A stretch of DNA of 64,000 nt. It comes from a virus. Of this stretch, positions 2,792-51,738 are shown piece after piece; within the stretch, counting starts at the first letter, position 1; the number at the start of each line of letters is the position of its first letter. Location of the stretch: positions 7,061-71,060 of the IMG/VR virus record IMGVR_UViG_3300043444_000400; one strand, written 5' to 3'. The translations under genes were made by a program, and so were the position numbers. The notes under the pieces were generated by a model. It was not told the DNA's origin. It saw only the letters and a list, made by a program, of their open reading frames with translations, and did not search any database.

Positions 2792-3151
2792 ATGATAACT
2801 ATAACTTTTAAGTCTTTACAAGATGAATTCCCTAAACCAGGAGATGAAATAGCGTATATTACAAGTGAAGGGGGAATAACTAGTATAAGATTTTCTGAAG
2901 TCGTAATGTACTGGATGAAAGAAGAAGGGAATTGTATAGAGTATATAGATGAAGAGTGTGAAGGGTATACTCCGTTAACATTTCTTTCTGATGGAGAATG
3001 TCTAGACAATTACTTACTTGAGGGTGAGACTGATTTGTTCTATTGGACATATTTTAAGGAGTATTATGAAACAACGAAAGAAATATATGGAAAGGAACCT
3101 GAACCATATGATTATCTTAGAAGATTGCTATTTGACCCAATAGTAAAGTAA
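2792..3151 (+). CDS. hypothetical protein
   Basis: ORF track. Confidence 0.65.
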   Translation: MITITFKSLQDEFPKPGDEIAYITSEGGITSIRFSEVVMYWMKEEGNCIEYIDEECEGYTPLTFLSDGECLDNYLLEGETDLFYWTYFKEYYETTKEIYGKEPEPYDYLRRLLFDPIVK

Positions 3152-3188
3152 TATAAAGTTGTCCAGTAGTAAAGTAATATAAAGTTGT
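3141..3188 (+). repeat. 22-bp perfect direct repeat upstream of the tmRNA locus
   Basis: TAGTAAAGTAATATAAAGTTGT at 3141-3162 and 3167-3188; followed by inverted repeat TATAAGTA/TACTTATA (3193-3220). Confidence 0.85.
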
Positions 3189-3230
3189 TGGGTATAAGTA
3201 CACAGTCTTGTATACTTATATTTACGATAT

Positions 3231-3292
3231 GGTACTAAAAAGTATTAATGGAGTTAGCAAAGACAGCGGTTCAACTCCGCTCACCTCCACCA
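3231..3292 (+). ncRNA. ssrA: two-piece (permuted) tmRNA, acceptor piece
   Basis: GAC-A-GCGG-TTCAACT-CCGC-T-CACCTCC-A-CCA: T-arm plus 3' acceptor strand with encoded CCA; its 5' part (GGTAC, AGTATT, TTAGCAAA) pairs with the coding piece. 5' end approximate. Confidence 0.88.
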
Positions 3293-3385
3293 GGGGCAGT
3301 AGCTCAATTGGTAGAGCGAGAAGCTTATACCTTCTGTATGCACCAGATTAGTGCGCGGTTGTGGGTTCGAGTCCCTCCTGCCCTA
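3293..3385 (+). tRNA. trnI: tRNA-Ile(UAU) with long variable arm, forming the tmRNA intervening segment
   Basis: GGGGCAG/CTGCCCT acceptor, GCTC/GAGC D stem, AGAAG-CTTATAC-CTTCT anticodon arm (TAT 3326-3328), 25-nt V region, GTGGG-TTCGAGT-CCCTC T arm, discriminator A. Confidence 0.9.
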
Positions 3386-3389
3386 CCTT

Positions 3390-3600
3390 GGGGGTGTCCT
3401 GGTATCGATTTGTTAATGAAGTGAAATACTGTACCCGGTCTAGAGTCCAGGACCGACCCTATGTATATACTACATAGGTGAAGAAGGACAAAATCGTGTA
3501 AATGCGAATCAAATCAAACCTTTTGCTCGTAAGACCTCTCTTGCTGTAGCATAATCATTGAACTGGGGTAGCTCATAAGGGTTACCCTAGTTCTTCTTTT
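3390..3600 (+). ncRNA. ssrA: two-piece (permuted) tmRNA, coding piece
   Basis: 5' GGGGGTG-TCCTGGTATCGA pairs with CACCTCC giving G3.U70 (Ala identity); pk1-like pairings CGGTCT/GGACCG and GTCC/GGAC; tag frame after TAAAT; ends at terminator. Confidence 0.9.
3504..3554 (+). other. tmRNA proteolysis tag reading frame ANQIKPFARKTSLAVA*
   Basis: Resume codon GCG preceded by TAAAT; resembles cyanobacterial ANNIVxFARK...AA tags. Confidence 0.88.
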
Positions 3601-3601
3601 T
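3560..3601 (+). terminator. Rho-independent terminator ending the tmRNA transcript
   Basis: GAACTGGGGTAGCTC-ATAA-GGGTTACCCTAGTTC followed by TTCTTTTT. Confidence 0.85.
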
Positions 3602-3621
3602 GCTGTCATTTGGATTGTCTT

Positions 3622-3789
3622 ATGTTGGATCTTGCTTCGATTGGACAACTAGTTCGCCAACTATCTTTTGTTTATGCTGTATTTATGGCCTGTGACAGTA
3701 CCTATAAAAAGAATATTCATGCACAGATTTTTTTCTGTTCTATGGCCATAGTTATTCAACTACAACTTATTTTCGTTGGATTACGCTAA
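3622..3789 (+). CDS. small hydrophobic (membrane) protein, 55 aa
   Basis: Manual translation MLDLASIGQLVRQLSFVYAVFMAC...AIVIQLQLIFVGLR. Confidence 0.45.
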   Translation: MLDLASIGQLVRQLSFVYAVFMACDSTYKKNIHAQIFFCSMAIVIQLQLIFVGLR

Positions 3790-3932
3790 TGATGGACTTA
3801 TCTTTTTGGACTTATCTGGGTATAACTTGTTCTCTCTTTAATGCCTTAATTGACTTTGACCGTGAGAATTACTCGTGGTCTCTCTTCTGGGTTGTTTGGA
3901 CTATCTTGCTAGGAGTGAACAATTTGTATTAA
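3789..3932 (+). CDS. small hydrophobic (membrane) protein, 47 aa
   Basis: TAATG coupling; MMDLSFWTYLGITCSLFNAL...WSLFWVVWTILLGVNNLY. Confidence 0.45.
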   Translation: MMDLSFWTYLGITCSLFNALIDFDRENYSWSLFWVVWTILLGVNNLY

Positions 3933-4012
3933 AATGCTGTATAATTAACAGCAACACCTGTGAAAATCAGGTGTATATGCCCTGGTAGCTCAGTGGATAG
4001 AGCAATCGCCTT

Positions 4013-4657
4013 TGCAAAAACACCTAAGTAAGCTATAATTAACTTAGTTTATAAGGTGAACAAATGGAGCCTATTTGTTGGAAGGTTGAGAAGATTGTAA
4101 GTAAAGGTGACTATAACTATGCTGTGGTAAAAGGACACCCAAAAGCTAATAAGCTAGGGTATATTTTAGAACACAGAGTAGTTATGGAGAATCATCTTGG
4201 TAGACTTCTTAACTCTGATGAGGTTGTTCATCATATCAATCATGATAGAAAGGACAACAGGGTTGAAAACTTGGAAGTTATGACCGCAAAACAGCATCAA
4301 CTGCTACATGGAAAAGAGATAGGTAGGAAATACTGTCACTTAAAATGCCCTGAATGTGGTGTTGAATTTTGTAAAGAAATTAGAGATACTTTCTTACAAA
4401 AAGGGGGCAGGTTTACTACTTGTTCGGCAAAGTGTAGAGGAAAACTTTCAAGAAAAATCCAACTCGGAAGAGAAACTCAAATAGTGGAAGCCGCCATATC
4501 GGAGAACATCCTTGCTATTTTCAAAAGATACAAGGGCAACTCCGAGGTAACTGTCTTACAACAGGAACCGTAGAGACTATACGCGGCTCACCTGAAATGG
4601 TGAAGAAATAGTCCAGCCTACAACTCGAAAGAGGTCATAGTAATATGATGTGGGATG
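4013..4657 (+). mobile_element. group I intron carrying an HNH homing endonuclease
   Basis: Exon ends in U, intron ends in G; P3 GCCGC(4490)/GCGGC(4583), P4 TCGGAG/CTCCGA, P5 CCTTG/CAAGG, P7 GACTA(4575)/TAGTC(4609), P8 TCACC/GGTGA. Confidence 0.88.
4064..4573 (+). CDS. HNH homing endonuclease with C-terminal Zn finger
   Basis: EHRVVME...VVHHINHDRKDNRVENL HNH motif; CPEC...CSAKC. Confidence 0.9.
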   Translation: MEPICWKVEKIVSKGDYNYAVVKGHPKANKLGYILEHRVVMENHLGRLLNSDEVVHHINHDRKDNRVENLEVMTAKQHQLLHGKEIGRKYCHLKCPECGVEFCKEIRDTFLQKGGRFTTCSAKCRGKLSRKIQLGRETQIVEAAISENILAIFKRYKGNSEVTVLQQEP

Positions 4658-4715
4658 CTAAGCGATCGGTCGCAGGTTCGAGTCCTGCCCAGGGCGCTAA
4701 CTTTAGAGGTTAATA

Positions 4716-5039
4716 GTGATGGAAAAGATTAAGGTTGTAGATTACTATGACCATGAGCCTACTGCTTGGGATTCAGGTCTACGAGAAACCCCTATAGACC
4801 TCTATTTTGAGTTTGAGCCATATAGCGGTTTTTCTATAGTCAAAGGCTATAACTTTACTTGTGGGGAATATACTCTTACAGCTAAATGCCCCTATAGTGA
4901 CGAGACTTTTGACTTTGTTTATGAAGAATGGTGGGGAACATCTCTTCAAGAGTGGTTTGAGGATAGCGTAGATTCTTATCTAAATAAGAACAAAATGTCC
5001 CAAATGAAACTTAACTTACAAGGAGAAAATCATGACTAA
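4716..5039 (+). CDS. HicB-like domain protein (array member 1)
   Basis: PYSGFSI...FDFVY...SLQEWFEDSVDSYL, resembles the HicB N-terminal domain pattern. Confidence 0.5.
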   Translation: MMEKIKVVDYYDHEPTAWDSGLRETPIDLYFEFEPYSGFSIVKGYNFTCGEYTLTAKCPYSDETFDFVYEEWWGTSLQEWFEDSVDSYLNKNKMSQMKLNLQGENHD

Positions 5040-5655
5040 TCTGATTACTCTGTTTAAGAATTCTGAGAACGAGATTTCACATTTCAAGATTAACGGGGAC
5101 CAAGACTTTATTGAGGAGGTTCTTTTTGTTGTTGACTTTATTCAATATGAGAAATCAGAAGATGCCCTTACTTCAGGAAAGCCTCTTAGCTTTGATGTAA
5201 GTGGATGTTATGGCAATTACTACCTTCTTTTAGCTCTCTCCTCTATTACTCAGTATTTTGAATTTCAGATTGATGGAGTAACTAAACGAATTCCTTCTAC
5301 AGTTCTTCCTCCAGCTAAGGAAGTATTCGATAAATACCCTGATTATGAATATAAGAATTGGGGGAAAGATGACCTTGGGGTGGAGGAAATTCCTTGGCAA
5401 GATGTTATCCTTGCTAGCATTATTGAGGATTACATTCTAACTAATGAACCAATTGTTCTAGAGTATAAAGGTTTTACTTGTACTCTTACAAAAGACCCTG
5501 CGAACGACTGGAATTATACAGCAGTTGTAACTAATCAAGGTGTTGTTTCTTTTGAAGGTCAAGGTAATTTAACCTATCTTGAGACTCAATTTCCCGAATG
5601 TGTAGACTCAAAACTTCAAGGAAAGCGTATTTACACTATGTCCGTCTACTACTAA
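5032..5655 (+). CDS. protein with C-terminal HicB-like domain (member 2)
   Basis: LEYKGFTCTL...GVVSFEGQGNLTYLETQFPECVDSKL. Confidence 0.6.
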   Translation: MTNLITLFKNSENEISHFKINGDQDFIEEVLFVVDFIQYEKSEDALTSGKPLSFDVSGCYGNYYLLLALSSITQYFEFQIDGVTKRIPSTVLPPAKEVFDKYPDYEYKNWGKDDLGVEEIPWQDVILASIIEDYILTNEPIVLEYKGFTCTLTKDPANDWNYTAVVTNQGVVSFEGQGNLTYLETQFPECVDSKLQGKRIYTMSVYY

Positions 5656-5720
5656 ATTAGTTTTTTGTATTAGGGGTTCTTCATTGAGGAGAACCTCATT
5701 CATCAAAAAGGGGATTCACA

Positions 5721-6296
5721 ATGTCAAACTTCTTGTACATCAATAAAGATTTTGAGTGTTACGTTAAGGGTGATTCCACTTTTGTCTATGCCTTTATGAA
5801 AGCTGTTAAAGCTCAAGGCATAGCAGAGGTTGTGTTGAATGAAGAACAGCAAACCATATCCGCTAATTATTACCTCAATGCTCTTTATATCCTAGATATG
5901 ATAGCAACTATGAAGAAGCTATGTCCTGACTTCAAAGTTGTGTTTTGTAACGTCACAGACATTATTATGTCTAAGGAATTTCCAGATAAAGAATATCTGG
6001 ACTTCATTGAATTTAATCATGACATAATTCTGTCCTATATTGTTCATGCCAATACGAAGCGAGGAGCTAAAGCATTACGCTTTTGTTTCAACAATGACAT
6101 GATAGAAGATGTGCTGACATTTAGTTATAAGGATTTTCAGGTTTCTTCTGTTGAGTATAGCGAGATTTATGACAGTTTTGCAGGACTTGCAAGTCATAAA
6201 GATGATGTAACTAAAGAAGTTGCCTTTGTTGGTAAAGATGTAGAAGACCTAAAACAAGCTTTCCATGGTGCTGTAGATACGTATACGCAGACATAA
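5721..6296 (+). CDS. protein with C-terminal HicB-like domain (member 3)
   Basis: FSYKDFQVSSVEYSEIYDSFAG...VAFVGKDVEDLKQAFHGAVDTY; N-terminus paralogous to 5032..5655. Confidence 0.7.
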   Translation: MSNFLYINKDFECYVKGDSTFVYAFMKAVKAQGIAEVVLNEEQQTISANYYLNALYILDMIATMKKLCPDFKVVFCNVTDIIMSKEFPDKEYLDFIEFNHDIILSYIVHANTKRGAKALRFCFNNDMIEDVLTFSYKDFQVSSVEYSEIYDSFAGLASHKDDVTKEVAFVGKDVEDLKQAFHGAVDTYTQT

Positions 6297-6989: not shown

Positions 6990-7399
6990 CAGAGAAATTC
7001 TTCAGTCTAGAACCTATCGATGGCTGTACCTGTGATTGTTATGTGGAAACTTATGAAGACACAAGTACTGTCTACTACGGGCTAGTTCAATTAGTTAACA
7101 GTGAAAGTTGTGCTGATATTAGTTCTTATACTTTAGATGGACTTAAAGAGAAGTTCAGATTGATTGTAGAGCTAGATGCACAAACTGCTAAATTGAATGA
7201 GACCTTGATTTTAGAGCAGGAAAACTGGACAGGTGAAATTGTAGCTTGCCTTATTGACGGGGTAGTCCTTGGTGTTTTCAAAGACGATTGGTGTAATGGT
7301 GAGTTCTTTATCCCGGTAGAGGTACTGAATCACATACAAACTTATTTTAAGACAATTGTTAGCTTACTAGAAGTTGGTATCACTGTTTACGGAGATTAA
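6986..7399 (+). CDS. divergent HicB-like domain protein (member 6)
   Basis: YVETYEDTSTVYYGLVQL...DISSYTLDGLKEKFRLIVE. Confidence 0.45.
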   Translation: MTEKFFSLEPIDGCTCDCYVETYEDTSTVYYGLVQLVNSESCADISSYTLDGLKEKFRLIVELDAQTAKLNETLILEQENWTGEIVACLIDGVVLGVFKDDWCNGEFFIPVEVLNHIQTYFKTIVSLLEVGITVYGD

Positions 7400-35138: not shown

Positions 35139-38100
35139 ATGACTTTTAATCTTTCTAATCCATTAACTCGTTATCCTGTAAATGCTCGTACTTATCGACG
35201 AATTGAGGACCGATGGGAGTTTCTAGAGCAAGACCAAAAGAAAAGACAACTTGATTTCACTCTTCGTATGGGAGAGTATACACAGGAACAAGAAGAACTT
35301 GTATCTGATTTCTTTAATAAGGAAATTTCTAATACTAGTGGACGTGTTTGGTGGGCAGCCGGTAGTAATAAAGAGAATGACCCGTTTGGTTATTATGCTT
35401 TCTATAACTGCTCAGGAACTATGTTTGTTAGTTTCTATGATTTTATTCGGTCTTTTAACAATCTATTTCTGGGTTGTGGACAAGGTGAGGTTATTCGAGA
35501 AGTTAATCTTAAGAAGCTTTCTAAAGTAGTAAATGTATTTAATCTTGAATTTACAGGTTATTTTGGTGAATACGGATTTGATAACCCTTCCTACACTGAA
35601 CACACTAAGTTATATCTAAGTGAAGACCAATCCTTAATCACTATTGAAGTTGGTGATAGTAGAGAAGGTTGGGCAAGTGCAACTAATGCATTGTTTGAGC
35701 TTTACACAAATGGAGCATACTTTTTAGAGGATAAAGATAAACTTGGTATCCCTTTACTTACGAATGTAACGAAAGAAAAATTACAAGAGGCTCTTCTTAA
35801 TGGGTACACCATCCATGTATGTCTAAGTTCTATTCGTCCTTACGGTACTCCCTGTAAAGGATTTGGTGGAATTGCTAATCCTGTATATACGGAAGAGTTC
35901 TTTACACGACTAACTAATATTCTTAACCGTGTAGCACTTACTGAATCCCAACAAATCAATACTTTAGATTGTGCTCTTATTAATAATGAGTTTGCAGCAT
36001 GGGCTGTAGCGGGAGGACAGCGACGAAGTGCAAAGATTGAACAGTTTGACTTTGATGACCCTACGGCTGATGCCAAGATGAATCTGTGGACTCAGCTTGA
36101 TGATGGGACTTGGGTAGCTGATGAAGAGAAGAAATCACTCAAGTTCTCTAACTTTACTAAGTTGTATTTTCATAAACCTACACTAGAAGAAGTAGAGAAT
36201 GCAGTTCGTACACAATTTATTTGTGGTGAAGGAGCTATTCAGTACGTACCCGTAGCTTTAGCACGAGCAAATGTTGATTTGTTTGAAAATGAAGATGCAA
36301 TTGTTAAAGTTAACGAAGCTGTAGATAATCAAATTAGTTTTGAAGAACTATTTAGTACAGCATATAAGGATAAGTTTGGTAAGGAAATTGATGAACGAGA
36401 GTTAACCCATAGAGTCAGTAGATATCAGCTTAACCCTTGTTTTGCTCCCGGTACTATTGTAATGACTCGTGAGGGCTACTTCCCTATTGAAACTCTCGTA
36501 GGTAAGGAAGTTGAAGTTTATGATGGTACAGAATGGCGTAAAGTAGATAACTTCCGTGTTACAGCTACCGACCAAGATGTTTATGATGTAGAACTTCATG
36601 ATGGGTCTATTATCACAGCAACCGCATACCATAAGTTTATTCTTGTTGATGGTACTGAAAAACAACTTAAAGACTTGGAAGTTGGTGATGAGTTAATGAC
36701 CACAGATATTCCTCCTGTAGAAGGTACTATTAAAGCTAAAGGAGCTTACCTTAAAGGTTTCCTTATTGGTGATGGTACTAGTTCAAATGGAAAAGGTGCC
36801 ATGTGTAAAATCTATGCACCAAAGATGGTCTGTCTTGACCGGCTATTTGCCTCCCAACGTGAAATGAATGGCCGTACAGGTAGTTATGAAGTTGGACTTA
36901 CACCTTCAGATCGTCTGAAAAGCCTAACTGCTGTAGAAGAAGACCTTAATCCTTGGTGTTACAAGTATAAGCATGAATTCCCTTACGAAGTTCTTAACTG
37001 GGACAACGAAAGTAAAGCTAATTTTATTGCAGGTTTGTTTGATGCTGATGGAACTGCTCAAGATAGCAATAGTGGTTTCCGTTATCAACTTACAAGTATC
37101 TCTCGTCCATTCTTAGAGGGTCTAGTCTTACTCCTCCGTACTCTAGGAATTAATTCTAAGATTGGGCCTGCTCGTAAAGGAGGTGTTAAGGATTTTGGTC
37201 CTGAAAGAGGAGGTTTGTGTAACTGTAAAGATACTTATCGGATTAGTCTAAGTCAAAAAGATTCCATTAAGCTTGGTCAATTGTGTACTTTTGAACGGCT
37301 TAAGGACTTAGGAGACAAAGCTACTCTTAATAGCTTTAAGAATAAGACAAACCAAGTTAAACAGATTTCTTTTAACAGTAATGCTCCTGAAGTCTATTGT
37401 TGTACTGTAGAAGGGACCAACAGATTCAGTATTCATGCGGGTTTGTTAGTGGGCAACTGTGGTGAAGTAGAAGGTAGTGACTTCATGTGCAACTTATCTT
37501 CTACCCACTTACGCCCTCTTATTAGAGAATTTATTGTTAACAAACTTAATGCTAGTGACTTAGCACCTCTAATGTATAAGGCTTTCTATGCTTCTGCTTT
37601 GATTATGACCCCATTGCTTAAGCATAAATTTCCTGATGAGAAATTTGCCTACTCACGAGAGATTGACCCTATTGTCCTTGCAAGCTTCACAGAGGGCTTT
37701 GAATTCTTCTCATGGCTATTCGGACCTAAGTGGTGTGAATGGTGGCTTGCTGCGCCTTCTGGATACGAATCAGACGATATTACATGTCCTCCAGAATTGT
37801 ATGGAAGACCTGATGAGTGGGTTCAAGAACATTATGATTTTAGTGAGGAAGAACATGAGCGAATTTCTTTCGTCACCTCTGTAGTTAAGACTATTCTGTC
37901 TAGTAAACCAGAAGTTAAAGAGCTACTTAAAAATGATGTAAGCTTTAATATTTTTGATACAATTGACTCCTTCTTATCTAATAAGAGTTGGGGTCTAGAT
38001 TTGGGTTGGATGTTCACTACTTATGAACGTATTATCCTTACCTATTGGAAATTAGCTGTACGAGATGGTGTATTTGATTATTGTGATGAACAAGGTCTAA

Positions 38101-38756
38101 AGCGCCCTAATCGTTATAGTGGGTTAAAGCCTGAAGGTTCTCAAACTCTTCTTACTGGATACACTAATAGCTGGGAACCCCCTAAAGCTGCTTACTATAT
38201 CCGTCGTATTACGATGGACCCTGCAACGGCTGTAGCTAAAGCATGTTATGACTTTGGTTATGAAGTAGTACCTGGACAAACTGATACCGATGAGAATGGT
38301 GTTCTTCTTAACGACCCATTTGACCCTCGTGTTAAGACTTGGCTCGTAGAAATTCCAATTCATGTAGACACAGTTCCTGATTGGTTTGATGGTAGTGAAG
38401 TTAGTGCATTAGCTCAATATAAGTTCTGGATGCAATGTCAGACCTACTATACGACTCATAATACGTCGAGTACGATTTTGCTTAAGGAGAATGAGGTTGA
38501 AACTCTAGCGGCTCAAATCTACGCTGATATTCATAACAACAAACCCTATATTTCTACAGCCCTACTTTCTCGTATGGGAGATACATTCCCTCGTCTACCC
38601 TATGAGAAGTGTACGAAAGAAGAATATGAGCGGCGTATGAATAAAATTGATACATCGATTGATTTCTACAAGTTAGTTGCTAAATATGATTCAGCTAAGG
38701 ACTCCTTTAGTGGCCCTAGTGGATGTGATAGTGACTTCTGTGAAATTAAGTTTTAA
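35139..38756 (+). CDS. nrdJ: class II (B12-dependent) ribonucleotide reductase, intein-containing
   Basis: SGRVWW, YNCS, GDSREGW, VAGGQRRSA, NP|CGE split by intein, KPEGS, C-terminal CDSDFC. Confidence 0.93.
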   Translation: MTFNLSNPLTRYPVNARTYRRIEDRWEFLEQDQKKRQLDFTLRMGEYTQEQEELVSDFFNKEISNTSGRVWWAAGSNKENDPFGYYAFYNCSGTMFVSFYDFIRSFNNLFLGCGQGEVIREVNLKKLSKVVNVFNLEFTGYFGEYGFDNPSYTEHTKLYLSEDQSLITIEVGDSREGWASATNALFELYTNGAYFLEDKDKLGIPLLTNVTKEKLQEALLNGYTIHVCLSSIRPYGTPCKGFGGIANPVYTEEFFTRLTNILNRVALTESQQINTLDCALINNEFAAWAVAGGQRRSAKIEQFDFDDPTADAKMNLWTQLDDGTWVADEEKKSLKFSNFTKLYFHKPTLEEVENAVRTQFICGEGAIQYVPVALARANVDLFENEDAIVKVNEAVDNQISFEELFSTAYKDKFGKEIDERELTHRVSRYQLNPCFAPGTIVMTREGYFPIETLVGKEVEVYDGTEWRKVDNFRVTATDQDVYDVELHDGSIITATAYHKFILVDGTEKQLKDLEVGDELMTTDIPPVEGTIKAKGAYLKGFLIGDGTSSNGKGAMCKIYAPKMVCLDRLFASQREMNGRTGSYEVGLTPSDRLKSLTAVEEDLNPWCYKYKHEFPYEVLNWDNESKANFIAGLFDADGTAQDSNSGFRYQLTSISRPFLEGLVLLLRTLGINSKIGPARKGGVKDFGPERGGLCNCKDTYRISLSQKDSIKLGQLCTFERLKDLGDKATLNSFKNKTNQVKQISFNSNAPEVYCCTVEGTNRFSIHAGLLVGNCGEVEGSDFMCNLSSTHLRPLIREFIVNKLNASDLAPLMYKAFYASALIMTPLLKHKFPDEKFAYSREIDPIVLASFTEGFEFFSWLFGPKWCEWWLAAPSGYESDDITCPPELYGRPDEWVQEHYDFSEEEHERISFVTSVVKTILSSKPEVKELLKNDVSFNIFDTIDSFLSNKSWGLDLGWMFTTYERIILTYWKLAVRDGVFDYCDEQGLKRPNRYSGLKPEGSQTLLTGYTNSWEPPKAAYYIRRITMDPATAVAKACYDFGYEVVPGQTDTDENGVLLNDPFDPRVKTWLVEIPIHVDTVPDWFDGSEVSALAQYKFWMQCQTYYTTHNTSSTILLKENEVETLAAQIYADIHNNKPYISTALLSRMGDTFPRLPYEKCTKEEYERRMNKIDTSIDFYKLVAKYDSAKDSFSGPSGCDSDFCEIKF
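36438..37457 (+). mobile_element. intein with LAGLIDADG homing endonuclease (340 aa)
   Basis: Starts CFAPGT after NP, ends LLVGN before CGE; LKGFLIGDG and IAGLFDADG motifs. Confidence 0.92.
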
Positions 38757-50505: not shown

Positions 50506-51738
50506 ATGAAAAGTTTTGTAATTGAGACTTCTTATCCCAATCTAAGTATCGTTGGTTTAGAGAACGAAAGTAATCAGAGAGTTCAGAGATTTTTTACCCC
50601 AAAGAATGAAAATGAAGGTCTTACAGGTGAGGATTTCTGTTTTGTAGCCGCACGATATTCACGTTCTGATAAGAATGTACTTGGAATTATAGACGAGATT
50701 GTAGACAAGAGTGTATCTATGTCTGAGAGAGCAAGTAAGATTGCTATTGACTACGGGCATTCTTCAGTAGCTGAGTTTGCTCAAGTTGGTATCTCCTTTG
50801 AAGGAGTGAGTGAGCTACTAGCTATGTTTATGTTAAATAAAATTAATACTTATGGGGCTTCACAACGAAGTACAAGATATCAAAAAATGGATACAGAAGG
50901 TCTTATCGGAACTAAATCTGATACAGACTTCTATAGAGAAGTACTGGAACGAGCCAAACCCTATGGTAAAGATGCTTATGATTCTATTAGATATCTACTT
51001 CTTATGGGTACTCGTACCTCTTTGTGGATTAGCACTAACCTACGTGAGTGGGCTATGCTTATTAGTCTTCTCAAAGGTTATGATGAGCTAGAGGAATTCG
51101 TAAGTATTGGAAATCTTATTGAAGAATTACTGACGAAAGAAATTGAGGGTGTTAGTCCTCCAGGAGCTAATCTTGTTCGTCATACTGAACCTCATGACTA
51201 TAAGAAAGACGTAGCTTTTACTGAAGAACTAAGCAAACGGTATCGATTGGATGACCATAATAGAGATGGGTTACTGGAATTAGTACAATCATATTACCCT
51301 CACCACTATGATGTAGTCCCTGGAATCATCGAGTTATATGCTAATCCCCTTAGCACTAACTACATGGCAACAATTCTAGACTTAGGACAGATTAGAGATT
51401 GGAATCGTCATCGTTCCCTATTACGCTACATTCCCTTTATTGAATATGGTTGTAATAAAGAACAATTATTTGAACTAGGTATTGATATTGGTATCTCTGT
51501 AGTTAATGATAAGGTAGATACTAAGTTTAATAATTATATTGAAGAGGTGTTAGCTCATGTATATTCTTTCGTTAATCCCAGTAATTTATACTCTTATCCT
51601 ATGGGATTCCATACACCAATCTACATTTCAGGCCCGATTAGCAAACAGTATTATACATATAAGTTAAGAAGTAATGATGGTGGACATACAGCTTATCGTC
51701 AGCAAGCCGCTAAGTTTCTTGCTACGTTGTTTGCTTAA
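50506..51738 (+). CDS. thyX: FAD-dependent thymidylate synthase (long, two-domain type)
   Basis: ARYSRS, YGHSSVAE, QRSTRY, TNLREW, RDWNRHR, GHTAYR. Confidence 0.88.
   Translation: MKSFVIETSYPNLSIVGLENESNQRVQRFFTPKNENEGLTGEDFCFVAARYSRSDKNVLGIIDEIVDKSVSMSERASKIAIDYGHSSVAEFAQVGISFEGVSELLAMFMLNKINTYGASQRSTRYQKMDTEGLIGTKSDTDFYREVLERAKPYGKDAYDSIRYLLLMGTRTSLWISTNLREWAMLISLLKGYDELEEFVSIGNLIEELLTKEIEGVSPPGANLVRHTEPHDYKKDVAFTEELSKRYRLDDHNRDGLLELVQSYYPHHYDVVPGIIELYANPLSTNYMATILDLGQIRDWNRHRSLLRYIPFIEYGCNKEQLFELGIDIGISVVNDKVDTKFNNYIEEVLAHVYSFVNPSNLYSYPMGFHTPIYISGPISKQYYTYKLRSNDGGHTAYRQQAAKFLATLFA

Follow-up and report, generated by a model that had tools for sequence, protein, structure and literature searches.

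A group I intron with an HNH endonuclease gene in the anticodon of a freshwater-phage tRNA-Arg(UCU) gene

The window analyzed here is a 64,000-nt stretch of viral DNA (positions 7,061 to 71,060 of the IMG/VR virus record IMGVR_UViG_3300043444_000400, 71,060 bases), and all features described below lie on its plus strand. Its phage origin, proposed in a first-pass annotation made from the letters alone, agrees with the source record and with PHROG matches for 10 of 18 proteins, including DNA polymerase, primase/helicase, ribonucleotide reductase and portal. Comparative sequence analysis confirmed the prediction of a group I intron that splits the tRNA-Arg(UCU) gene of this freshwater phage inside the anticodon, with coordinates unchanged from that annotation. 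The 5' exon (3979..4012) supplies an acceptor strand, the D arm, the anticodon-stem strand ATCGC and the loop nucleotides C32, U33 and U34. The group I intron (4013..4657) is 645 nt long with the omega-G as its last base (4657), and the 3' exon (4658..4696) supplies C35, U36, A37 and A38, the stem strand GCGAT, the variable loop, the T arm and the second acceptor strand, with the discriminator G present and CCA not encoded. Upstream of the tRNA gene lies a promoter-like site (3916..3945; TGAACA-18-TATAAT, 10 of 12 consensus matches), for which the evidence is weak given nine such sites in the region compared to 4.5 +/- 2.1 in shuffles.

The insertion falls between tRNA positions 34 and 35 (loop CTT|CTAA), as previously proposed; of five junctions compared (+/-2 nt), 4012/4658 alone combines a T at position -1 with a G at the intron end, and the rival junctions lack the U-1/omega-G combination. 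With introns allowed, ARAGORN reported a single split tRNA at 3979-4697 with an intron of 645 nt. The product joined in silico at 4012/4658 was called tRNA-Arg(tct) of 74 nt, with anticodon TCT and a cloverleaf fold, which supports the predicted tRNA identity. Without the intron, 7/7 acceptor, 5/5 anticodon and 5/5 T-stem pairs are formed, perfect stems being a requirement of the split-tRNA search itself. The T stem additionally covaries at all five pairs among 28 related introns. AGA and AGG, the codons read by the interrupted tRNA, make up 208 of the 482 Arg codons in the 32 long ORFs of the phage (175 for AGA, the commonest) compared to 11 of 11 in the HNH gene within the intron. The 71-kb record yielded no second tRNA-Arg; one may exist elsewhere in the genome, because the record is about 53% complete. 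A search of viral contigs with the neighboring protein encoded at 5032-5655 gave no match.

The 5' splice site is predicted to lie in a short P1 helix (4010..4069) comprising C4010-G4069, T4011-A4068, T4012.G4067, T4013.G4066 and G4014.T4065, i.e., only three pairs with the exon and two within the intron, the splice-site wobble being T4012.G4067. In 28/28 family members, C-3, U-2 and U-1 base-pair with the guide sequence GGAG (here 4066-4069). Two other candidate guides were rejected, neither being conserved in the relatives: TGTAGAGG (4443-4450) would form 8 bp with a U.G at the splice site, and AAGGTG (4053-4058) 6 bp with a U-A there. P10 was not seen beyond one pair and P1 is short; the exons must accordingly be aligned through the anticodon stem, whose role in this process is reportedly the subject of work by Zaug et al. 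from 1993. The L1 loop (4015..4063), which is 3-10 nt long in most relatives, is expanded and encloses a hairpin (4025-4030/4042-4047) and a Shine-Dalgarno-like AAGGTGA (4054-4060), and a promoter-like site (TTGCAA-16-TATAAT) with a putative promoter role spans 4012-4039.

The P2 helix (4071..4484) is formed by 4071-4077 (CTATTTG) with 4478-4484 (CAAATAG), so that the body of the HNH ORF makes up the P2 loop. P2 is present with 5-9 bp and many compensatory changes in 28/28 members, and the same helix is closed in the ORF-less members L022 and L043. The earlier claim that the ribozyme core P3-P8 is present proved well founded, as P3-P9, including the P3/P7 pseudoknot, are backed by covariation. 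P3 (4489-4494 with 4583-4588) and P4 (4499-4504 with 4540-4545) each show two-sided changes in five of six pairs, with 99.3 and 97.3% of alignment cells paired, respectively. The pair 4487-4589, tried as part of P3, was rejected since covariation puts 4589 in P8. In P5 (4509-4514 with 4531-4536) the inner three pairs are well supported and the distal ones poorly aligned, resulting in 74% pairing overall. P6 (4546-4547 with 4568-4569) is 100% paired and P6a (4551-4554 with 4561-4564) partly paired. P7 (4575-4580 with 4608-4613), which forms the pseudoknot with P3, is 99.3% paired with five of six pairs invariant and matches the conserved core of the Rfam model RF00028. P8 (4589-4592 with 4599-4602) is 100% paired, with two-sided changes in three of four pairs. 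P9 (4617-4621 with 4650-4654; two-sided changes in three of five pairs) encloses P9a (4624-4626/4631-4633; GAAA loop, two of three pairs) and P9b (4636-4639/4644-4647; GTAA loop, four of four pairs), both capped by GNRA-type loops. No helices were seen between P3' and P8 and P5 is small, features which we take to fit subgroup IC3.

The covariation set comprised 28 related introns (25 distinct rows); two bacterial introns with an ORF in P6 (L215 and L237) were left out of the alignment, in which MAFFT had misplaced both. Under the model of P3-P9 plus the T stem, 94.3% of 1269 cells were paired compared to 34.5-42.7% when partners were slid by one to three columns. Two-sided changes occurred in 35 of 51 pairs, and none of 500 shuffles reached any of the five measures. 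Because the sequences share ancestry and one of them served to derive the structure, this support is somewhat inflated. Compensatory changes also occur inside the coding part of the intron, and selection on the RNA is therefore implied.

The HNH homing-endonuclease ORF (4064..4573; 169 aa, open from ATG to TAG) fills the P2 loop and matches the Pfam model HNH_3 (PF13392) with 51.2 bits (cut-off 24.8, E-value 9.4e-14). Residues His56, His57, Asn65, Asn69, His78 and His82 (HH...N...N...H...H), presumably the HNH catalytic set, are invariant in 19/19 intron ORFs. The window ORF is full length with all six of these residues and both Cys pairs; two of the 19 related ORFs are truncated. As predicted, the frame continues across P3-P6 and ends immediately ahead of P7 (TAG at 4571-4573, P7 strand from 4575). 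The predicted overlap of coding sequence and ribozyme thus exists, but its proposed size of about 85 nt was too small. At the 3' end it covers 96 nt, from the P2' strand at 4478 to the stop at 4573, i.e., the last 32 codons also form P2', P3, P4, P5 and P6, and at the 5' end 14 nt (4064-4077), where the start region is shared with the guide sequence and P2. Among the 26 ORFs compared (the one from the window included), the same HNH lineage occurs in 14 Arg introns with 48-60% identity over the full length, whereas ORFs of Leu(UAA) introns gave partial matches only (3/11). The single Lys(CUU)-intron ORF compared gave no match to this lineage. A sequence search of the PDB at E<=1 found no meaningful HNH relative among solved structures.

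The expectation that tRNA scanners would miss the split gene was upheld, with ARAGORN at default settings reporting three genes in the window and none at the locus. Rfam searches of the window at gathering thresholds gave three matches, the locus not being among them, and a search of the whole window at E<=0.001 likewise did not report it. In a 901-nt search the Intron_gpI model (RF00028) matched 4386-4637 with 40.3 bits (E-value 1.2e-8), short of the gathering score of 50, and this shortfall counts against the assignment; the threshold is operational and no defining trait of group I introns. The P1-P2 part of the model was mis-placed because approximately 400 nt of ORF separate the two P2 strands.

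The insertion site had been called unusual, which was an overstatement given that the same intron occupies the same site in at least 30 distinct sequences. These tRNA-Arg(UCU) genes, split at the identical site, include 21 viral ones (the window included) and at least nine from bacterial MAGs; the intron is the same in the 21 viral hosts despite tRNA exons that vary widely, which speaks for mobility. Related introns also split phage Leu(UAA), Lys(UUU) and amber-suppressor tRNA genes. ORF-less derivatives keep the same helices, namely L043 (240 nt), L022 (305 nt) and seven bacterial introns (218-266 nt); the latter represent seven of the nine bacterial MAG loci collected and share the identical site and the P7'/P9 motif. 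The other two bacterial introns, L215 and L237 (616 and 640 nt), carry a different ORF in P6. One copy (L003) has decayed and is without the 3' half of the ribozyme. The 17-nt P7'/P9 search motif is common to Leu(UAA) introns at 25 loci in viral contigs and at least four loci in bacterial genomes, and most Leu(UAA) copies are ORF-less or have unrelated ORFs. A motif scan of genome contigs returned at least 120 stretches, of which the 21 with split-tRNA calls were counted; the raw number is uninformative because 99 lack such a call, and one match (L242, Nostoc) lies in unrelated sequence. At two further loci (L039 and L058), a split tRNA-Thr(UGU) reading holds only if position 33 is a C.

A search of 50,697 phage records gave two short core matches only, both in uncultured huge phages, and HNH relatives with at most 55% identity over part of the protein. 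The HNH loci of Vibrio phage 11895-B1, Psa21 and GX15bay gave no group I match; the HNH relative adjoins tRNA genes in Psa21 (L300) and GX15bay (L301), and no tRNA was found near that of Vibrio phage 11895-B1. Thus, no cultured phage with the intron was found. Nor did the literature outside subscription journals yield a paper on a group I intron in a phage tRNA gene. The element belongs to a large, barely described family of introns in phage and bacterial tRNA genes.

It is real and a variant of an already known kind of tRNA group I intron. Like the tRNA-Leu(UAA) intron of cyanobacteria and plastids, reportedly described in 1990 by Xu et al. and by Kuhsel et al., it follows U34 and a 5' exon ending in CUU; the tRNA is a different one, and the motif shared with Leu introns comes from viral and bacterial Leu copies. 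The tRNA-fMet intron of Synechocystis, which encodes I-Ssp6803I and is reportedly the subject of work by Bonocora & Shub in 2001, is likewise a tRNA-gene group I intron with its own homing endonuclease targeting the anticodon region, but differs in its bacterial host, tRNA, position and nuclease family (PD-(D/E)xK). I-HmuI/II, I-BasI and I-TwoI are HNH nucleases of group I introns in phage protein genes. Such introns resemble the present one in their phage setting, in an HNH gene inside a group I intron and in presumed nick-initiated homing, but they interrupt protein-coding genes, as does the intron of I-PfoP3I, another such HNH nuclease (PMC3428280). According to a 2014 review, all phage introns then known were in protein genes despite the many phage tRNA genes (PMC3984707). 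"Enigmatic" tRNA introns, said to be previously unreported, were described in Lak megaphages by Devoto et al. (2019; PMC6784885); these also lie in phage tRNA genes and carry no group I classification there, the comparison being one of descriptions only. A preprint by Williams (2020), whose scope is bacterial and archaeal genomes rather than phages, expands the four classical tRNA settings (Leu.3Ug, Arg.5Ug, fMet.2Ug and Ile2.5Ug; subgroup IC3) to 21. In that nomenclature the present intron is an "Arg.3Ug", lying between the third and fourth loop nucleotides of tRNA-Arg with U-1 and g-omega, and it shares with the introns described there the anticodon-loop position, the U-1 and omega-G limits and a short P1 that uses loop nucleotides. 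Unlike the ORF-less bacterial introns at the same site, the window copy has its P2 loop occupied by an HNH gene.

An intron-less version of the same locus was identified in another freshwater metagenome (run X4) on a 501-nt contig with a depth of 10.6, an observation that is new here. The X4 contig matches the window at 3931-3997 (63/67) and 4669-4975 (306/307), and 27 letters replace 3998-4668 and complete an intron-less tRNA-Arg with the loop CTTCTAA. Its anticodon stem (ACGAC/GTCGT) is unlike that of the window, and divergence is limited to approximately 15 and 11 exon bases around the insertion site. A divergent exon tract that hugs the insertion site is as expected of co-conversion and points to recent mobility. 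The same locus thus exists with and without the intron in related genomes; the contig is a single short metagenome assembly, which shows presence and absence but not whether the intron was gained or precisely lost. The suggestion that the element is probably still mobile gains support from this allele, from the intact HNH frame and from the residues invariant in 19/19 ORFs.

Taken as a whole, the sequence evidence makes it probable (roughly 80%) that the phage tRNA-Arg(UCU) gene houses a functional group I intron of the type that occupies anticodon loops of bacterial tRNAs, and that this intron has been mobile recently. In the precursor, C32-U33-U34 would pair with the guide GGAG (4066-4069) to form a short P1 with a U.G wobble at the splice site, the two exons being held together by the anticodon stem. 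Free guanosine would attack after T4012, the terminal G4657 would then take the same site, and exon joining would yield a 74-nt tRNA reading AGA. A look for RNA sequencing runs that contain the stretch gave none. In the window copy the nuclease would probably be translated from its own Shine-Dalgarno sequence and perhaps transcribed from its own promoter, both inside the expanded L1. In relatives that infect the same cell, it may nick or cleave tRNA-Arg(UCU) genes that lack the intron, whereupon repair would copy the intron together with a few flanking exon bases into the cut gene (homing).

Alternatively, the intron may splice but no longer be mobile, the HNH protein being inactive or its target lost, so that it persists as a harmless passenger and the X4 allele represents an old polymorphism or a precise loss. 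The family does undergo nuclease decay, as seen from the truncated ORFs, the several ORF-less copies and the copy lacking the ribozyme 3' half. We nevertheless consider this reading unlikely for the window copy, whose ORF retains its full length, the six invariant residues and both Cys pairs, and whose intron-less relative, apart from the few bases around the insertion site, is nearly identical downstream (306/307), suggesting a recent event. Less likely still is a dead split gene, in which folding would suffer from the ORF inserted in P2 and from the coding constraint on the core, so that splicing would be inefficient and the phage would be left without that tRNA-Arg. In favor of this reading are the short P1, the approximately 400 nt between the P2 strands and the unfolding of the core to be expected from ribosomes that translate P2'-P6. 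Against it, all helices are intact with the pairing found in ORF-less relatives, the gene has U-1, the wobble G and the omega-G, the tRNA stems are all fully paired, and the compensatory changes in the coding part have been kept. That there is no intron at all, but a free-standing HNH gene that landed between tRNA halves or a tRNA assembled from two separate transcripts, is hardly credible despite the free-standing HNH relatives beside tRNA genes of the cultured phages Psa21 and GX15bay, in view of the covarying P1-P9 architecture, the RF00028 match and the ORF-less members, which are pure ribozymes at the same site.

If the intron is functional and mobile as we propose, the shared use of P2 and the core by the HNH frame means that a ribosome and a folded ribozyme would be mutually exclusive on one RNA. 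In 11 of the 19 HNH-bearing relatives the start codon follows the guide GGAG at a distance of 5-6 nt and lies inside P2, so that the guide would double as a Shine-Dalgarno sequence; in the window the AUG overlaps the guide, a promoter-like site lies inside L1, and the HNH gene uses for arginine only AGA and AGG, which the interrupted tRNA reads. It is conceivable, if rather doubtful, that the intron couples tRNA maturation to nuclease production in a self-timed circuit in which each excludes the other. If so, synthesis of the nuclease would be delayed until its host tRNA is spliced and would compete with that splicing.

The approximately 110 nt that do double duty as ribozyme and protein code represent a compact natural case, and together with the matching natural intron-less allele they make homing, co-conversion and the conflict of translation and splicing directly testable. 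Since scanners miss the Arg(UCU) split gene and its many relatives, phage tRNA inventories are under-counted, and it is scanner-derived tRNA counts that feed interpretations of codon compensation, host range and recoding. Phage tRNA genes, among them Arg(UCU), Leu(UAA), Lys(UUU) and amber-suppressor genes, are a busy niche for group I introns.

The source record is an IMG/VR virus of 71,060 bases, estimated to be 53% complete, and 10 of the 18 proteins tested gave PHROG matches (DNA polymerase, primase/helicase, RNA ligase, ribonucleotide reductase, thymidylate synthase and portal protein). The two halves of the split tRNA gene lie on the plus strand at 3979-4012, where the last loop letters are CTT, and at 4658-4696, where the first letters are CTAA. 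For the window, ARAGORN with default settings (three genes) and Rfam with gathering cut-offs (three matches) gave nothing at this locus, and Rfam at E<=0.001 over the whole window had no match there either; the gene is thus overlooked by scanners, as the first-pass annotation had anticipated. With introns allowed, ARAGORN called a tRNA gene at 3979-4697 that is split by 645 nt. When the junction was shifted from -2 to +2, only 4012/4658 combined a 5' exon ending in T with an intron ending in G, and the exons joined at this position gave a tRNA-Arg(tct) of 74 nt; the coordinates and the junction proposed in the first-pass annotation are therefore right.

The Rfam group I model matched 4386-4637 with 40.3 bits (E 1.2e-8 in a 901-nt search), a score below the gathering score of 50. 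A model of P3-P9 was derived from the window and applied to the 3' parts of 28 related introns; L215 and L237, two loci with the ORF in P6, were left out of the alignment because MAFFT misaligned them. Of 1269 cells 94.3% were paired, compared to 34.5-42.7% when partners were slid by 1-3 columns, changes on both sides were found at 35 of the 51 pairs, and none of 500 shuffles matched any of these measures, a margin that is still large for a test biased in favor of the model by the relatedness of the sequences and by a structure taken from one of them. Several compensatory pairs were present in each of P3, P4, P8, P9 and P9b, while P7 was near-invariant and the distal part of P5 aligned poorly.

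The guide sequence GGAG is conserved 3-62 nt after the 5' splice site and pairs with C-3, U-2 and U-1 in all 28 sequences, the U.G wobble falling at the splice site, and additionally with intron base 1 in 23 of them. The resulting P1 is short in the window (plus strand, 4010-4014 with 4065-4069). Alternative guide sequences at 4443-4450 and 4053-4058 were ruled out for lack of conservation in relatives. No P10 past one pair was seen in the window; the anticodon stem aligns the exons in tRNA introns and presumably does so here. P2 starts one base past P1, has 5-9 bp and a partner strand immediately before P3 in 28/28 sequences, and shows abundant compensatory change. Its strands in the window (plus strand) are 4071-4077 and 4478-4484, and the HNH gene is therefore the P2 loop. 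Natural copies without an ORF close the same P2 across a short loop, namely L043 (240 nt), L022 (305 nt) and seven further, bacterial ones (218-266 nt).

The HNH ORF (plus strand, 4064-4573; 169 aa) scores 51.2 bits with Pfam HNH_3 (cut-off 24.8) and also matches ten PHROG families that carry the annotation HNH endonuclease; no relative was found among solved structures at E<=1. When 19 intron ORFs were aligned, His56, His57, Asn65, Asn69, His78 and His82 did not vary, and two Cys pairs were almost invariant; truncation affects two of the 19 but not the ORF of the window, which is full length. Its final 32 codons double as P2', P3, J3/4, P4, P5, P4' and P6, the conserved C-terminal peptide stretches coincide with the RNA elements P2'-P6, and the frame ends with TAG (4571-4573) within J6/7, a single base short of P7. 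The overlap of coding sequence and ribozyme that had been put at about 85 nt is real, but its length comes to 96 nt at the 3' end plus 14 nt at the 5' end. With the ARAGORN split call, the unique junction and the covarying P3-P9, the first-pass observation is confirmed and its reading, a phage tRNA-Arg(UCU) split by a group I intron, supported: this is a true group I intron, and the HNH gene that it carries runs through its core.

Each intron ORF of 90 aa or more was matched to the protein of the window (n=1, self). All 13 ORFs of tRNA-Arg(UCU) introns matched with 48-60% identity (12 full-length, the one at locus L024 truncated); of the 11 from tRNA-Leu(UAA) introns three gave partial matches and eight none, and the single tRNA-Lys(CUU) ORF gave none. 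These protein matches link the window-type nuclease lineage to the Arg intron. In cultured phages, relatives occur as free-standing genes and adjoin tRNA genes in two of three cases examined; those in Pseudomonas phage Psa21 (L300) and Caudovirales GX15bay (L301) are immediately next to them. A lineage of nucleases targeting tRNA genes, both within introns and outside them, is suggested.

The start codon lies 5-6 nt past GGAG, within the P2 5' strand, in 11 of the 19 HNH-bearing copies, in which the guide sequence of the ribozyme would also act as ribosome-binding site. The L1 loop is enlarged, at 53-62 nt, in the window and in L057 and L059, the relatives nearest to it; in the window the ATG and the guide sequence overlap, and AAGGTGA precedes the ATG by 3 nt. 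A promoter-like TTGCAA-16-TATAAT (4012-4039), a weak match to the consensus, spans the 5' splice site, with the same spacing visible by eye in both relatives; the region has 9 consensus promoter sites versus 4.5 +/- 2.1 in shuffles. We infer that a translating ribosome and a folded P1-P6 are mutually exclusive on one RNA molecule. AGA is the commonest Arg codon (175/482, with AGG at 33/482, in 32 ORFs of >=200 aa) and no other tRNA-Arg was found within the 71-kb record, hence the phage would need splicing. All 11 arginines of the HNH gene are encoded by AGA or AGG, as are 139 of 192 over the 19 family ORFs. That HNH synthesis is itself reliant on the tRNA interrupted by its intron is improbable; the codon preference may be mere AT-richness.

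A 17-base stretch covering J6/7-P7-P3' was present in 50 viral-contig stretches, and a degenerate P7'/P9 motif was found in more than 118 stretches of viral contigs and in at least 120 of the genome collection. Many of the latter are chance matches, since 99 of the 120 listed were without a split tRNA and one (L242) lies in unrelated sequence. A strict search of 289 oriented loci (7/7 acceptor, 5/5 anticodon-stem and 5/5 T-stem pairs; loop CTT|CTAA) yielded 38 split tRNA-Arg(UCU) genes. Their 30 distinct sequences comprise 21 from viruses, the window among them, and nine from bacterial MAGs, mainly Acidobacteriota and one Omnitrophota; the site, initially thought unusual, is not rare in metagenomes. 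By the P7'/P9 motif, further phage tRNA genes also contain group I introns (viral contigs L115, L131, L141; L064-L163; L109, L169): Leu(UAA) at 25 loci, the amber suppressor (CUA) at three, where the intron follows position 35, and Lys(UUU). Where suppressor tRNAs are split, annotation would miss the recoding. The tRNA-Arg(UCU) introns of L215 (405-1094; 616 nt) and L237 (926-1638; 640 nt), both Acidobacteriota MAGs, carry a different ORF in P6 instead of P2, which suggests independent nuclease invasions of one intron class. At locus L003 (1460-1990) a tRNA-Arg-like 5' fragment is directly continuous with an HNH ORF (48% identical), P7-P9 and the 3' exon are absent, and the locus resembles a copy of the split-tRNA-Arg element that has decayed or been rearranged.

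The same intron resides in tRNA-Arg genes with widely differing acceptor and anticodon stems. Contigs of four DNA sequencing runs were compared with 3000-6000. In X4, a freshwater metagenome of a different sample and study, a contig of 501 nt (depth 10.6) differs from the window at four of 67 bases in 3931-3997 and at one of 307 in 4669-4975, with 27 letters replacing 3998-4668 and completing an uninterrupted tRNA-Arg (loop CTTCTAA). Because this contig shares the flanks, the empty site is carried by a close relative of the window phage. Three base pairs of its anticodon stem differ from the window, all compensated, and divergence is limited to about 15 and about 11 exon bases flanking the insertion point. 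A contig of another run, X5, joins 4012 to 4658 exactly; its shorter side has 29 matching letters, and it may come from another organism. Precise loss of the intron or older recombination is a possible origin of the X4 empty site; such a short divergent exon tract, here seen in one contig, would be expected after co-conversion during homing. The intron is probably active and recently mobile.

Further features were noted elsewhere in the window and on a related contig. A circularly permuted (two-piece) tmRNA gene occupies 3200-3645 (tmRNA 3231-3554; Rfam RF04321, 83.6 bits versus 47; ARAGORN tmRNA* with tag peptide). A complete tRNA-Ile(UAU) gene (3293-3387) lies inside its intervening sequence, and tRNA processing would therefore split the tmRNA into two pieces; a 2025 tmRNA survey (PMC11915505) describes a tRNA at that position as a unique feature, seen once. 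This tRNA-Ile has 95 nt and a 21-nt extra arm between the anticodon and T arms, which is unusual for tRNA-Ile; a tRNA-Ile(tat) of equal length is found on L002, a related 140-kb viral contig (902-996), whose tRNA array also contains a match to the "drum" RNA family RF02958 (2541-2650; 69 bits versus 43). Ribonucleotide reductase (1205 aa, 35139-38756) and thymidylate synthase (50506-51738) match PHROGs in three separate and two stretches, respectively, and may contain inteins or other insertions.

Four classical settings of bacterial tRNA introns, all IC3, were raised in number to 21 (Williams, 2020). Phage introns then known were all in protein genes, despite many phage tRNA genes, according to Hausner, Hafez and Edgell (2014; PMC3984707), and protein genes only are named in passages of further phage-intron papers (PMC11878797, PMC12363816, PMC7886860, 10.1101/2021.08.26.457843, PMC10580990, PMC9610469). 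"Enigmatic" introns in Lak phage tRNAs were called unprecedented and left unclassed in the available text of Devoto et al. (2019; PMC6784885), and our literature search turned up no report of a phage tRNA gene interrupted by a group I intron. The element is a phage-borne, nuclease-bearing variant of the bacterial tRNA-anticodon-loop introns, of a kind frequent enough in metagenomes to be not rare, yet scarcely described.
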